Shown: one piece after another, positions 1,169 to 33,707 of the stretch
Numbering within the stretch: the stretch's first letter is position 1
Layout of the letters: the number at the start of each line of letters is the position of its first letter
Source: Patescibacteria group bacterium
GTDB taxonomy: Bacteria; Patescibacteriota; Minisyncoccia; Portnoybacterales; GWB1-42-6
Length of the DNA: 38,775 nucleotides
Assembly: GCA_018818145.1 (NCBI GenBank)
Contig: JAHIST010000087.1
Span: 1-38,775, forward strand
Direction: 5' to 3'
The notes under the pieces: generated by a model
Told to the model about the DNA's origin: nothing
What the model saw: only the letters and a program-made list of their open reading frames with translations
Database searches by the model: none
Position numbers and translations under genes: made by a program

Positions 1169-2992
1169 ATGCTTTGGCAATTTAAACCTAATGCGCCGGA
1201 GGAATTCATCAGGCAGTTTCCTGAATATCAACCGATAGTTTTGCAGCTGCTTTACAATCGCGGCTTGAGAACGCAACAGCAAATTGATGAATTTTTCAAT
1301 CCGGATTTTGAGGGGGATCTTCTGGATCCTTTTTTGATGTTGGGTATTAGCCAAGCGGTTAAGCGAATAAATAAAGCGATAAAAAAGAAAGAAAAAATCG
1401 CTATTTTTGGCGATTACGACTGCGATGGTGTCTGCGGTGCGGTTATTTTAAAAACAATTTTGGAGGAGCTAGGAGCTGATTTGAGCGGCGGCGTTTATAT
1501 ACCCGATCGGATAATTGAAGGTTATGGCCTGAATAACGAAGCGATAGAGAAGCTGGGTAAAGAAAAAGTTAATCTGATTTTAACGGTTGATTGCGGCATT
1601 TCCGACGTGGCGGAAGTTAAGTTAGCCAATTCGCTTGGCGTAGAAGTCATTATTGTTGACCACCATCGTTTGGGCAAAAAATTACCATCAGCCAAGGTCA
1701 TAATTGACCCTTGGCAGCCAAAAGATAAGTATCCTTTTAAGGAATTAGCCGGAGCGGGCGTGGCGTTTAAATTAGCGCAAGCCCTTCGACAAGCTCAGGG
1801 TAAAGCCCTTCAAAAAAATCAGGGTAAGCCGGGTTTGGATAATAAAATTTCTGAAGGCTGGGAAAAATGGCTGCTGGATTTGGTGGCGCTGGCCACGGTG
1901 GCTGATTGCGTGCCGGTTTTGGGGGAAAACCGCACGTTGGTGCACTACGGTTTGATTGTACTGGCGCAGACAAAAAGAGTCGGTCTACAAGAGTTAATGA
2001 AAGTGGCGCGGTTAAATCCCGTTTTTGAAGCCGAAAATCTTAAGACTAATTTAGACACTTATTCTTTAGGTTTTATTTTGGCGCCGCGGCTTAACGCGGC
2101 CGGACGAATGGACCATGCCAGCTTGGCGTTTCGTTTGCTTATGACCCAAGACTATCAGGAAGCCAAAGTTCTGGCCGAAAAAATTAATGAGCAAAATCAG
2201 CAGCGGCAGAAACTAACCGATAAAATAGTGGCTGAAGTAGAAACCCGGATTAAAAATTATCAGGCAGATAAAAATCAGCCCGTTGTCGTGGAAACAGATA
2301 AAAACTGGTCGCCGGGCGTGGTCGGCTTGGTTGCCGGCAAAATTGCCGACCGTTATCACCGCCCAGTTTTTATTTTCAAGGAAGACGAAAAAGTCAGCCG
2401 CGGCTCTGCCCGCTCCATACCCACTTTTGATATTATTGAGGCCATAGGCCAGTGCAGCCAATTGCTTAAGGAATTTGGCGGGCATCCGGGCGCGGCCGGC
2501 GTATCATTAGAAAATAAAAATCTTTCCGCGTTCAAAGAAAAAATAAACCAGATTGCCAGAGAAAAATTGAAGCCCGAAGATTTAATTCCCGCCGCGCAAA
2601 TAGATTCGGAACTGGAGCCAGCGGAGGTTAATTGGGAGTTGTTTGACGAACTGGAGCATCTTGAGCCCTTTGGGCGGGGAAATGACCCGCCAGTTTTTTT
2701 GTTAAAAAATCTGGAAATCGCCAATTTGCGGGTTGTCGGCAACGGCTCAAAACATTTGAAATTGGAGTTGAAAAGTGATAAATTAGCCAATAAGGTTTTT
2801 CACGCTATTGGTTTTAATCTGGCCGCCCGCCTGTCATCGCCTGCGGCTCAGACTATTGGCGGGCAAGCCAAAAACGGTAATGACAATTTAAAAACAGGCG
2901 ATAAAATTGATATTATTTTTGAACTGATAGCGGATGAGTGGAACGGGACGAGGAATTTACAGCTGAAAATAATAGATATAAAAAAATTATGA
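1169..2992 (+). CDS. recJ: single-stranded-DNA-specific exonuclease RecJ (DHH/DHHA1)
   Basis: Motifs DYDCDGVCG, VDCG, VDHH and GGHPGAAG. ATG 1169 (MLWQFKPNAPEEF) is preferred over the TTG 1154 of the ORF track. The stop TGA overlaps the ATG at 2989 (ATGA junction). Confidence 0.9.
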   Translation: MLWQFKPNAPEEFIRQFPEYQPIVLQLLYNRGLRTQQQIDEFFNPDFEGDLLDPFLMLGISQAVKRINKAIKKKEKIAIFGDYDCDGVCGAVILKTILEELGADLSGGVYIPDRIIEGYGLNNEAIEKLGKEKVNLILTVDCGISDVAEVKLANSLGVEVIIVDHHRLGKKLPSAKVIIDPWQPKDKYPFKELAGAGVAFKLAQALRQAQGKALQKNQGKPGLDNKISEGWEKWLLDLVALATVADCVPVLGENRTLVHYGLIVLAQTKRVGLQELMKVARLNPVFEAENLKTNLDTYSLGFILAPRLNAAGRMDHASLAFRLLMTQDYQEAKVLAEKINEQNQQRQKLTDKIVAEVETRIKNYQADKNQPVVVETDKNWSPGVVGLVAGKIADRYHRPVFIFKEDEKVSRGSARSIPTFDIIEAIGQCSQLLKEFGGHPGAAGVSLENKNLSAFKEKINQIAREKLKPEDLIPAAQIDSELEPAEVNWELFDELEHLEPFGRGNDPPVFLLKNLEIANLRVVGNGSKHLKLELKSDKLANKVFHAIGFNLAARLSSPAAQTIGGQAKNGNDNLKTGDKIDIIFELIADEWNGTRNLQLKIIDIKKL

Positions 2993-9380: not shown

Positions 9381-9411
9381 AAAACCCCCATTTATTCAAC
9401 AGGGGTTTTTA
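9381..9411. terminator. Bidirectional intrinsic terminator (small ORF on plus, rnpB on minus)
   Basis: AAAACCCC ... GGGGTTTT stem with a T-run on both strands. It lies about 20 nt beyond the 3' end of rnpB. Confidence 0.6.
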
Positions 9412-9432: not shown

Positions 9433-10069
9433 AATCAGCTTTCTAATGGGGCAAGCAAGTCTATAAGCCGAATTCTGTCCTTCGGCTCACTTCGTTTCGC
9501 CTCAGGATAAATTCCTAAAAGGGTTTACCCTGAGCTTGCAAAGCAAGCGAAGGGATAATCATCTGTCTGGGTCCCGCATTGCTGCGGGACTCAAGCGATC
9601 TACTTTTCTTATGAGATTCAAATTTTCAATCTCATAGTTTGATCTTGCACCCGGTAAGGATTTTGCCGTTTCACTCCCAAAGTTATCCTTTGGGACTCGC
9701 CCTATCTCCGTTTTTGCGGAGCGGGCGTCCCGACTTTTTCAAGTTGCGGGGCGTCTCTGTTCGCACCTCTATCCCGCCCGCTTCGCCAAGCTTTAGCGAG
9801 GCGAGTATTTGCGGGACGACGGCCGTTAGCCGCTACCTTTTTACCCCTCACTTGGATCACTGGAGATGAAATAATATATTTATTTTATTCTTGTTCATCT
9901 GCAAGGAACCAAGTGAGGGGGAGTGTTCGGACTTTCCTCCCCCCACTTGCTATTAGTCTAGTTTATATTGTTTTAAGATCAACAATATTTTTTGGAAAAA
10001 TCTTATTACTTGACTGATAGCAAGTGGGGGGCGATTACCCGACTTACTTGCCCTATTAGAAAGCTGATT
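9433..10069 (-). ncRNA. rnpB: RNase P RNA, bacterial type A, unusually long
   Basis: The minus strand carries GGAGGAAAGTCCGAAC (P4 5' strand) and ACAGAATTCGGCTTATAG (P4 3' strand), with covariation relative to E. coli. It also has GCTAACGGCC, GCGAACAGAGACG, AGTGAAACGGC, CCGGGTGCAAGATCAAA, GCTTGAG and CAGACAGATGATTATCC. The terminal 29 nt pair with each other (9433-9461 with 10041-10069). Mature ends may be internal to this extended P1. Confidence 0.9.
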
Positions 10070-10116
10070 TTAAAGGAGCGGGACATTAATATTATTAGCT
10101 TATTTTTGCTGCTTGT

Positions 10117-10233
10117 CAACCCCGTTAGAGATTTTCCAAAGAAGCTGGTATTTTATTAACAATAGCCGTAGGCGGAATCGCGATATAAATTAAAGGATAA
10201 AATAAACATAGCTGAATCTCTAACAGGGTCAAC
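10117..10233. repeat. ~115-nt palindromic element closed by CCCCGTTAGAGATT / AATCTCTAACAGGG
   Basis: The inverted ends (10120-10133 and 10215-10228) have one mismatch. The end motif is the same as at 7870-7971 and around tRNA-Thr. Confidence 0.5.
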
Positions 10234-26874: not shown

Positions 26875-26929
26875 AAAAATCTTAAATTTATGGCAAAATT
26901 AAACCATCTTGAAAGGATGGTTTTTGTTT

Positions 26930-28942
26930 ATGGAACAGCAAAAAAACATCAGAAATTTTTGTATCGTGGCGCATATTGACCATGGCAAGTCCACTTTAGC
27001 GGATCGTTTTTTGGAATTGACGCAAACAGTAGAAAAACGAAAAATGCGTGAGCAATTTCTGGACCAGATGGATTTGGAGAGGGAGCGAGGAATAACAATC
27101 AAGCTGCAGCCGGTCAGGATGGAATACGTTTTGAAAAATCCAAATAACAAAATCCAAAGTTTAAATAAATTTCAAAATCCAAATGACCAAAATGTTCCGC
27201 CCGCTTCGCCGCAGCTTCAACGAGGCGAGCAGGGCGGGACTGGATTAGAAATTAGAAATTCGGATTTAGAAATTGCAGATTCAAAATTTATTTTGAATCT
27301 GATTGATACTCCGGGGCATGTAGACTTCTCATATGAAGTATCAAGATCGCTGGCCGCGGTGGAAGGCGCGATTTTGCTGGTGGACGCGACCAAAGGAGTG
27401 CAGGCCCAAACTTTGGCTAATTTATATTTAGCCCAGCAGCAAAATTTAGTTATTATTTCGGCAATCAATAAAATTGACTTGCCGGGCGCCAGAGTTTCGG
27501 AAGTGGAAGATGAAATCAGGAATATTTTGGGCGAAAAAGGCGCGGCTACGGAAATTTTTAAAATTTCCGCCAAAGAAGGCACAGATGTTGAAAAATTATT
27601 GCAGGCGGTAATAACTCAAGTTCCGTTGCCCGAAGGCGATGCGCAAAAACCCTTGCGCGCTTTGGTTTTTGATTCTGCTTACGATTCTTACAAGGGCGTA
27701 ATTGCCTATGTGCGGTTAATAGACGGAGAGATAAAGCGGGAAGACAAAATTATTTTTATGGCTTCAAAAGCCCGTGCTGAAGCGCTTGAGGTAGGAGTTT
27801 TTAAGCCCGATTTGCGTCCGGTTCAAAAATTGTCGGCCGGTGAGATCGGCTATATTGCCACCGGCCTGAAAGACGTGGCGCTTTGTCGCGTAGGCGACAC
27901 TATAACTATATCAAATATCAAAAATCCCCGGCCTCGCCCGGGCTTGGCCGAGGGCGGGCAAAGATCAAATATTTCAGAGGTTAAACCATTATCAGGATAC
28001 CGTGAACCCAGGCCTATGATTTTTGCCAGTTTTTACACGGCTTCCGGGTCGGAGCGGGAAAATCAAGACTTTAATTTATTGCGCGACGCGCTGTCAAAAT
28101 TAAAATTAAGCGACGCTTCGCTGGTTTTTGAACCGGAAGCGTCGGAAGCCTTGGGCCGCGGCTTTAAATGCGGATTTTTGGGCATGCTGCATTTGGAAAT
28201 TGTCAGCGAAAGATTGCGGCGCGAATACGGTTTAAAATTGATTATTACCACGCCAAGCGTGGTTTATCAGCTCAAGGAAAAAAACAATCCCGAACAAAAA
28301 TTAATTTACTCGCCCCAGCATTTGCCCGACGCCAGTTGCACAGAAGAGATTAAGGAGCCCTGGATTAAGTTGGAAATTATCAGTCCCAACGAATATCTGG
28401 GAACAGTGATGAAGTTGCTACAGGGATTGGGTGGAATTTACGCCAACACCCAATATCTGGGCGCGCAGAGAGTCATAATCAGCTATGAAGCGCCGCTGCG
28501 AGAAATTATTGTTGATTTTTACGATAAATTAAAAGGCGCTACTTCCGGTTACGCCTCTATGAGCTATGAATTAATTGAATGGCGGGCGGGAGATTTGGTT
28601 TGTCTGGACATCCTTGTGGCCGGTGAAAAAGTAGAGGCATTTTCGCGGATTGTTCCGCGCGCCAAAGCATTGTCGGAAGGCCGGGCGATCGTGGAAAGAT
28701 TAAAAGATGTTTTGCCGGCCCAGCTTTTCACGGTCGCTTTGCAGGCGGCTGTAGGCGGCAAAATCCTGGCGCGCGAAACGATTAGGGCGCGCCGCAAAGA
28801 CGTGACCGGCTATTTATACGGCGGCGATGTAACGCGAAAGCGTAAATTATTAGAAAAGCAGAAAAAAGGCAAAAAGAAAATGCTGTCGCGCGGCCGCGTC
28901 AACATCCCGCAGGATGTGTTTTTGAAGGTATTAAAGAAGTAA
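26930..28942 (+). CDS. lepA: Translation elongation factor 4 (LepA)
   Basis: Motifs IRNFCIVAHIDHGKSTLADR, DTPGHVDF, NKIDL and the LepA_C tail GGDVTRKRKLLEKQKKGKKKM. ATG 26930 (MEQQKNIRNF) is preferred over TTG 26909. Confidence 0.95.
   Translation: MEQQKNIRNFCIVAHIDHGKSTLADRFLELTQTVEKRKMREQFLDQMDLERERGITIKLQPVRMEYVLKNPNNKIQSLNKFQNPNDQNVPPASPQLQRGEQGGTGLEIRNSDLEIADSKFILNLIDTPGHVDFSYEVSRSLAAVEGAILLVDATKGVQAQTLANLYLAQQQNLVIISAINKIDLPGARVSEVEDEIRNILGEKGAATEIFKISAKEGTDVEKLLQAVITQVPLPEGDAQKPLRALVFDSAYDSYKGVIAYVRLIDGEIKREDKIIFMASKARAEALEVGVFKPDLRPVQKLSAGEIGYIATGLKDVALCRVGDTITISNIKNPRPRPGLAEGGQRSNISEVKPLSGYREPRPMIFASFYTASGSERENQDFNLLRDALSKLKLSDASLVFEPEASEALGRGFKCGFLGMLHLEIVSERLRREYGLKLIITTPSVVYQLKEKNNPEQKLIYSPQHLPDASCTEEIKEPWIKLEIISPNEYLGTVMKLLQGLGGIYANTQYLGAQRVIISYEAPLREIIVDFYDKLKGATSGYASMSYELIEWRAGDLVCLDILVAGEKVEAFSRIVPRAKALSEGRAIVERLKDVLPAQLFTVALQAAVGGKILARETIRARRKDVTGYLYGGDVTRKRKLLEKQKKGKKKMLSRGRVNIPQDVFLKVLKK
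27137..27280. repeat. Composite dispersed-repeat insertion, in frame, between switch I and the DTPGH motif of lepA
   Basis: It has three parts. AAATCCAAATGACCAAAA is about 18/20 identical to 1089-1108. The GC hairpin CCGCCCGCTTCGCC...CGAGGCGAG...GCGGGAC (27197-27240) is about 85% identical to 9773-9817. GGATTAGAAATTAGAAATTCGGATTTAGAAATT is nearly identical to 33675-33707. Confidence 0.75.
27910..27972. repeat. Second in-frame lepA insertion (54-nt period) flanked by a 9-bp direct repeat ATCAAATAT
   Basis: ATCAAATAT occurs at 27910-27918 and 27964-27972. The GC-rich core is CCCCGGCCTCGCCCGGGCTTGGCCGAGGGCGGGC. Removing the 18 aa restores colinearity with E. coli LepA ([23 protein letters not shown], from memory). 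Confidence 0.65.
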
Positions 28943-33583: not shown

Positions 33584-33598
33584 AATTTCCAATAATTG

Positions 33599-33707
33599 CC
33601 GCCTGCTCGCCTCGCTGCCGCCTTTTGCGAGCCTCGCCTCTGGCGGGAAGCTACGGCGAAGCGGGCGGCGGCATGGTTTAGAAATTAGAAATTAGGATTT
33701 AGAAATT
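33599..33707. repeat. Intergenic composite repeat: GC hairpin family plus the TTAGAAATTAGAAATT word run
   Basis: CCGCCTGCTCGCCTCG...GGCGAAGCGGGCGG is the reverse-complement relative of 27197-27240 and 9773-9817. It is followed by GGTTTAGAAATTAGAAATTAGGATTTAGAAATT. Confidence 0.7.

Follow-up and report, generated by a model that had tools for sequence, protein, structure and literature searches.

STRR repeats reportedly occur inside helix P12 of the RNase P RNA of heterocyst-forming cyanobacteria, and the 23S rRNA of Salmonella, Leptospira and other bacteria carries intervening sequences that are excised by RNase III. For CPR bacteria, Lui, Nielsen and Arkin (2021, PLoS Comput Biol, PMC8172020) found that 10 of 35 circular genomes seemed to be without an RNase P RNA until the search thresholds were lowered. 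In the passages of that paper drawn on here, large extensions or losses of helices mark most of these CPR genes; many of them have lost P13/P14, and the UGG motif is absent in two thirds.

The gene described here lies on a contig of 38,775 nucleotides (JAHIST010000087.1 of assembly GCA_018818145.1), the whole of which was analysed and is called the window below. Its host is an 866-kb, 99-contig groundwater Parcubacteria (CPR) MAG with an estimated completeness of 95%. We put the probability at roughly 0.85 that the locus is the single working, type-A-derived rnpB of this bacterium, with its core intact and its peripheral tips lengthened, once by the capture of a repeat.

The rnpB gene, its core and its host genome

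An earlier note on this DNA had read the locus as an oversized RNase P RNA gene of ~637 nt on the minus strand. Covariance-model (CM) alignment with RF00010 (bacterial RNase P class A) succeeded over model positions 1-367, which is the full length of the model, at 85.2 bits and an E-value of 4.2e-26, and it upheld both the identity and the size of the gene. The match is 603 nt long, and with the extended terminal helix the gene reaches 637 nt (Table 1), ~200 bases above the length typical of its relatives. RF00010 was also the best match of the locus within the RNase P clan, and the minimum free energy (MFE) fold of the 637 nt, at -280.8 kcal/mol, had a z-score of -15.3 against shuffles. The locus is confirmed as a genuine RNase P RNA gene.

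The whole model was matched, though with a score below the curated cut-off. The gathering score of RF00010 is 100 bits, so that at 85.2 bits the gene is missed by a default Rfam scan; with gathering thresholds, such a scan of the window listed three tRNAs only, and rnpB was found only with E-value thresholds. The E-value scan also returned microRNA, snoRNA and CRISPR-DR matches, all far under their own cut-offs, which were set aside as chance matches to plain hairpins. No intron family was matched in that scan, and group I or group II introns were rejected as an account of the inserts, the interiors of which, at 53-63 nt, are too small.

The gene is flanked by candidate signals for transcription. 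A sigma-70-like promoter, graded strong, lies ~15 nt ahead of the extended P1. The TTGACA box also precedes rnpB in relatives, where it mostly stands directly before a short P1; the distance from the -10 box to the start of P1 is ~7 nt in most of them. On the 3' side of rnpB, a hairpin followed by a U-run is the likely intrinsic terminator; its loop exceeds the range of the terminator scanner. The 76-aa ORF within the gene, which had been called an artefact of the RNA gene, was rightly dismissed, as it has no Pfam match and lies antisense inside rnpB. A second antisense ORF, at 9992-10159 (+), overlaps rnpB and has no Pfam match either.

Table 1. Features of the rnpB locus, in window coordinates
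Feature	Position	Strand	Basis or remark
rnpB (RNase P RNA) including extended terminal helix	9433..10069	-	MFE fold; CM match inside
Full-length RF00010 match	9448..10050	-	CM; sole rnpB match in the 866-kb genome
Promoter-like site TTGACA-17-AATAAT	10091..10119	-	11/12 consensus matches
P1 5' strand; 10051-10069 is a 19-nt extension relative to P1 of relatives	10041..10069	-	Pairs with 9433-9461
P3, enlarged to a 93-nt hairpin with A+T-rich interior (GC 0.34)	9939..10031	-	z -9.2
J3/4 and P4 5' strand, AGGAAAGUCCGAAC (last base also opens P5)	9925..9938	-	Identical to RF00010 consensus core
Hairpin between P5 and P7 (P5.1 position), 77 nt	9844..9920	-	12-bp base, z -7.4
P9, enlarged; 9770-9819 is a copy of a dispersed GC-rich hairpin repeat	9771..9817	-	Repeat match; short P9 in relatives
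P19-position insert, 74 nt, branched	9479..9552	-	Between P2 3' strand (9553-9560) and P4 3' strand
P4 3' strand region, ACAGAAUUCGGCUUAUA	9462..9478	-	Matches RF00010 consensus ACAGAACCCGGCUUA
P1 3' strand	9433..9461	-	Pairing with 10041-10069
Likely intrinsic terminator: AAAACCCC, 12-nt loop, GGGGGUUUU	9381..9410	-	Read from sequence
Spurious 76-aa ORF antisense to rnpB	9639..9869	+	No Pfam family; wholly inside RNA gene

Both sides of the P4 pseudoknot (GAGGAAAGUCCG... / ACAGAA..CGGCUUA) are present in the window rnpB, the P4 strands being GAGGAAAGUCCGAA and ACAGAAUUCGGCUUA. As read from the sequence, the AGGAAAGUCCGAAC region pairs with UUCGGCUU at 9465-9472 and leaves the canonical bulged U. 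The core also retains P8, the J5/15 GCAAG, P18 and an 8-bp P2 (GGGUAAUC/GAUUAUCC), which together with P1 joins the 5' and 3' ends. The statement of the earlier note that all universally conserved type-A elements are present thus holds for the core, but P13/P14 and the GGU of L15 are missing. P13/P14 are absent from the window rnpB and from every family member in the alignment, all of which are without the ~36 columns that hold these helices in the sister family f6. In L15, AAAAGUAG stands at the position of the consensus CGGGUAGG, with AGU in place of the type-A GGU, as in the alignment of the family. The lost L15 motif agrees with the small number of tRNA genes that encode their 3' CCA, at most 10 of 42 in the host genome. 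Despite a hairpin at the P5.1 position, the gene is not of type B (Bacillus type), which was defined by the presence of P5.1, P10.1 and P15.1 and the absence of P6, P16 and P17: the P15-P17 arm of type A is kept.

A further pairing involves one strand of P4. A 10-bp hairpin (window 9461-9488, minus strand), which competes with the catalytic P4 helix and is used in the MFE fold, can form between GUGAGCCGAA at the 3' end of the P19 insert and the P4 3' strand, UUCGGCUUAU; a relative (G012) retains a pairing of this type via a wobble change. Judged from the modelled fold, this hairpin may serve as a folding trap or a switch by sequestering the P4 3' strand.

The protein partner is encoded in the same genome, as an rnpA gene with a PF00825 match of 87.4 bits in an open frame of 114 aa (G000:C18:2701-3012), and the RNA would work with this RnpA protein from elsewhere in the genome. 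That the locus is instead a decaying pseudogene or an assembly chimera, as might be suspected from a score under the Rfam cut-off and from a MAG of 99 contigs, we find hardly credible. The core strands are intact and complementary, one rnpB match and no second was found in the 866-kb genome, and 5 of the 12 other family genes also scored under or near the cut-off (50-104 bits). Moreover, the same DNA is found in runs of three studies. Contigs of an independent run from another study (X2) reproduce the insert-bearing stretch with zero differences, and those of a run from a third study (X3) are near-identical, their listed pieces leaving 9945-9972 in the P3 hairpin uncovered. Since independent DNA runs reproduce them, the inserts are not an assembly artefact. 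An RNA-library contig that differs at a single position, described below, likewise argues against decay or chimerism.

Two wider searches covered other sequence collections. A contig search with the neighbouring DUF763 protein gave 80 loci, none with the rnpB core motif; the closest relatives of this protein lie in MAGs of Portnoybacteria, Parcubacteria and Paceibacteria, which places the host among the CPR bacteria. A metagenome search with a 20-mer from P9 gave 21 contigs, none with rnpB motifs nearby, and these were discarded as chance or repeat matches in GC-rich DNA.

Extension sites and the repeat in P9

The extra length sits in five places, namely P1, P3, a hairpin between P5 and P7, P9, and P19. 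Four of these had been named in the earlier note and all four are real, with corrections of detail. The P3 hairpin stands on a perfect 15-bp base (CCCCCCACUUGCUAU/AUAGCAAGUGGGGGG) with a predicted -40.7 kcal/mol, and its A+T-rich interior measures 63 nt, where ~70 nt had been given. The second A+T-rich hairpin exists but had been placed right after P4, whereas it follows the P5 5' strand CACUC and precedes P7. The insert of ~75 nt between the P2 and P4 3' strands was described correctly; the fold of 9483-9562, which holds most of it, has a z-score of -4.0. The terminal helix does extend over 29 positions, which make 28 pairs (27 Watson-Crick and one G-U) and one A-C mismatch. The source of length that the note did not list is P9, with ~30 extra nt.

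Homologues from related genomes carry shorter helices at the extension sites. In 30 such genomes 24 rnpB genes were found, with the same core and a length of 343-477 nt. All but one of the 24 have a much shorter P3, the remaining match (G019) being cut off there, and P9 is short in the alignment. Nearly all relatives have a short hairpin between P5 and P7, with one long A+T-rich version (G007) whose stem begins CCCCACUUGC. Short P19 hairpins are present in many, and that of G012, at ~60 nt, resembles the P19 of the window. Because relatives carry short hairpins at P5/P7 and P19, the versions in the window are enlargements and not new insertions.

In a sample of 150 genomes of the class, 141 gave a match and 125 a full-length match. 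The full-length genes have a median of 409 nt, a 95th percentile of 593 nt and a maximum of 749 nt; five of the 125 are 603 nt or longer, which puts the window rnpB in the top 4%. RF00010 scores under 100 bits were obtained for 37 of the 141 matched genomes. In an alignment of eight of the longest class genes (598-749 nt), extensions lie in P12, P16/17, P3 and P19, with a P3 extension in G063 that has the stem CCCCCCACUCAGC..., and the P5/P7 hairpin was seen again in most of the eight. The window rnpB is long without being exceptional: growth of this kind is widespread in its class, and the gene stands in the upper part of the length range. Other family members carry single extensions of their own. 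In L025 (G001), P9 is a 92-nt A+T-rich hairpin closed by a GC clamp (CCCCCACCAUUA.../UAAUGGUGGGGG), and a segment of P18 is duplicated; L015 (G003) has a 45-nt insert in P8.

The interiors of the P3, P5/P7 and P19 extensions matched only short A+T-rich words when compared by BLAST with their own genome, and those of P3 and P5/P7 gave only short A+T-rich chance matches in 300 class genomes. A 15-nt identity between the P19 insert and recJ (window 1790-1804; E 0.045) is no more than chance would give. The P3 and P5/P7 hairpins, the folds of which are thermodynamic predictions, are present only in this genome among those searched, and these two A+T-rich extensions are lineage-specific sequences.

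The tip of P9 belongs to a hairpin repeat that is dispersed through the genome. BLAST of the tip against its own genome found several loci with 91-94% identity over 31-35 nt, among them C48:13571-13605, which is identical to it at 33 of 35 positions. The matching loci define a ~50-nt GC-rich hairpin repeat with the core TCGCCTCGCTnnAGCTnnGGCGAAGCGGGC, which the P9 tip contains and of which there are 13 copies in the host genome. A leave-one-out profile, made without the rnpB copy, recovers the P9 tip at an E-value of 1.2e-8. Thirteen of the 16 family genomes contain the core, often letter for letter, and none contains the reversed control pattern. Copies of the repeat are also found between genes, and one lies within lepA (ORF 26903-28939, plus strand), where it is placed in frame in the G domain (27192-27244) between A+T-rich flanking arms. 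TIGR01393 matches this LepA at 797 bits in two stretches around the repeat insert, which is translated.

Some copies of the repeat occur in more complex arrangements. The LepA insert as a whole (window 27130-27300) is a composite palindromic element just before the DTPGH motif and is translated as ...NPNDQNVPPASPQLQRGEQGGTGLEIRNSDLEI.... At window 33588-33674 and at G000:C84:11025-11112 the GC-rich repeat is longer and nested, one copy enclosing another, and both loci are flanked by A+T-rich repeats of the TTAGAAATT type. Similar sequence rich in GAAAUUC/GGAUUU fills the P12 and P16/17 extensions of CPR rnpB genes in G057 and G095. A cluster of GC-rich intergenic palindromes, for which no Rfam match was found, occupies G000:C40:200-360 and includes a P9-type copy at 268-312.

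An origin from repeats might also be proposed for the A+T-rich hairpins, in that P3 and P5/P7 would hold a palindromic mobile element (MITE- or REP-like) that inserted recently, instead of hairpins grown in place. The P9 tip shows that hairpin repeats enter this rnpB, and the stem bases of the P3 and P5/P7 hairpins share the motif CCCC(C/U)CACUUG. The same 11-mer forms a tight palindrome, CCCCTCACTTG-CACG-CAAGTGAGGGG, at G000:C40:319-344, directly after the P9-type copy, and the stem of this palindrome is that of the rnpB P5/P7 hairpin; the arrangement is suggestive of a hairpin module, and not more than suggestive. The long A+T-rich P5/P7 hairpin of G007, with its stem CCCCACUUGC, would also fit a mobile element. 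However, the C-run of the shared motif is native P3 and P5 sequence, and beyond the 11-12 nt of the stem base the two hairpins are unlike (67 of 500 shuffles score as well), so that they were rejected as copies of each other. In addition, no target-site duplication is evident, and the BLAST comparisons of the interiors gave no other copy in the host genome and only chance matches in the 300 class genomes. We judge a mobile-element origin of these two hairpins to be rather unlikely.

In the preferred reading, that of a type-A-derived rnpB with lengthened tips, the 603-637 nt of this RNA, compared with ~400, would result from hairpins that grew on the tips of peripheral helices, at P1, P3, the P5/P7 hairpin, P9 and P19. 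At least one of them, the P9 tip, arose from a copy of the small dispersed GC-rich repeat that entered the helix. We take the sites concerned (P1, the P3 loop, the P5/P7 junction hairpin, the P9 loop and P19) to be outer, variable positions of RNase P. Going by the established structure of RNase P, the extended tips would face outwards, away from the active site and from the side that binds tRNA, much like the expansion segments of rRNA.

RNA-library contigs and the fate of the extensions

The RNA evidence consists of assembled contigs of RNA libraries, which are of low depth, and RNA libraries can contain DNA. A contig from a 2019 groundwater metatranscriptome (X10), with a depth of 2.9, matches the 214 nt of 9637-9850 at all but one position, and an RNA contig from a 2025 study (X12) covers 9654-9847 at ~96% identity. 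The two contigs pass through the copy of the repeat in P9, so that the P9 extension is present in RNA-library molecules. Most X12 contigs and joints represent rnpB genes of other organisms, with short hairpins. No RNA-library contig lies over 9855-9904 or 9955-10120, and the P1, P3, P5/P7 and P19 extensions are uncovered; in contigs that are assembled and of low depth, such gaps say nothing about excision.

Excision would mean that RNase III removes the A+T-rich P3 and P5/P7 hairpins, and perhaps the extended P1, from the transcript as intervening sequences and leaves a ribozyme in two or three base-paired pieces. The stems of both hairpins are long (12-15 bp and more) and almost perfectly paired, and resemble RNase III substrates; an RNase III gene is encoded in the host genome (G000:C47:2963-3355). 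Like the intervening sequences of 23S rRNA, the two hairpins are long, near-perfect A+T-rich stem-loops in place of a peripheral helix tip of an essential RNA; excision is known there, whereas the hairpins here are deduced from the DNA. The X10 and X12 contigs end within 3 nt of each other, at 9850 and 9847, in the 3' arm of the P5/P7 hairpin, where the DNA contigs continue. These common ends are a weak hint of excision at most, as assemblies also break off where strains differ or where depth is low, such as the 2.9 of X10, which explains the ends equally well, and the X12 contig comes from a ~96% identical strain that may carry a different hairpin. A joint across an excised insert was not seen for the host organism among the RNA contigs. 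Our literature search found no fragmented bacterial RNase P RNA, and we know of none.

Excision is, in our view, very unlikely. If it did occur, the bacterium would run on a naturally fragmented RNase P RNA of several pieces and, more broadly, structural RNAs of CPR bacteria would gain length through captured hairpin repeats and have these trimmed afterwards. If, as we prefer, the gene encodes a single rnpB RNA with lengthened tips, the extensions other than the P9 tip would be tolerated passengers, probably retained in the mature RNA, and this RNA would be active.

Comparison with described RNase P RNAs

The window rnpB resembles the type-A RNAs (RF00010; E. coli M1 RNA, Thermotoga maritima) in its P1-P4 core, the P4 pseudoknot, P5, P7-P12, the P15-P17 arm, P18 and the optional P19. 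It differs from them in its length, 603-637 nt against ~350-400 nt, in being without P13/P14 and the L15 GGU, and in the added hairpin between P5 and P7. In the portion of PMC2858038 that we cite, a table assigns a helix at that site (P5.1) to type-B RNAs only. A hairpin at the P5.1 position is present in nearly all sampled class rnpB genes (L002-L025, L123-L130), with or without P13/P14, and the literature texts examined, in the parts consulted, gave no description of the P5/P7 hairpin of this class.

The gene also has a feature in common with the reported cyanobacterial STRR case, in that a genome-dispersed repeat sits in a peripheral rnpB helix and lengthens it. The STRRs are said to be tandem heptamers in P12, whereas P9 here holds one GC-rich hairpin repeat of ~50 nt. 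Unlike the STRR insertions, the extensions of P3 and P5/P7 in the window rnpB, which are larger than that of P9, are not repeat copies. By its P9 extension, the gene links the spread of a repeat, which has also entered protein-coding sequence, with the growth of a structural RNA, and this is the part worth collecting across genomes.

As far as the cited passages of PMC8172020 extend, the window rnpB fits the published description of CPR RNase P RNAs on every point. It is derived from type A, scores below the RF00010 threshold, carries helix extensions, and is without P13/P14 and without the UGG/GGU of L15, and its host, like the hosts described there, is a small groundwater CPR genome. The helices concerned differ: those passages illustrate an extended P15 and a missing P12 or P15, whereas the window rnpB extends P1, P3, P5/P7, P9 and P19 and keeps P12, P15 and P18. 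No extension is traced to a genomic repeat in that part of the text, and the P9 tip of the window rnpB is. For annotation, the case means that CPR genomes like this one can wrongly appear to be without RNase P RNA at the default Rfam threshold. Judged against the same passages, the phenomenon is already published and existing knowledge is left unchanged; the locus is one more well-delimited case of an ultra-small CPR genome that enlarges an essential ribozyme. What it adds is modest, namely the delimitation of five extension sites and the repeat origin of the P9 tip.
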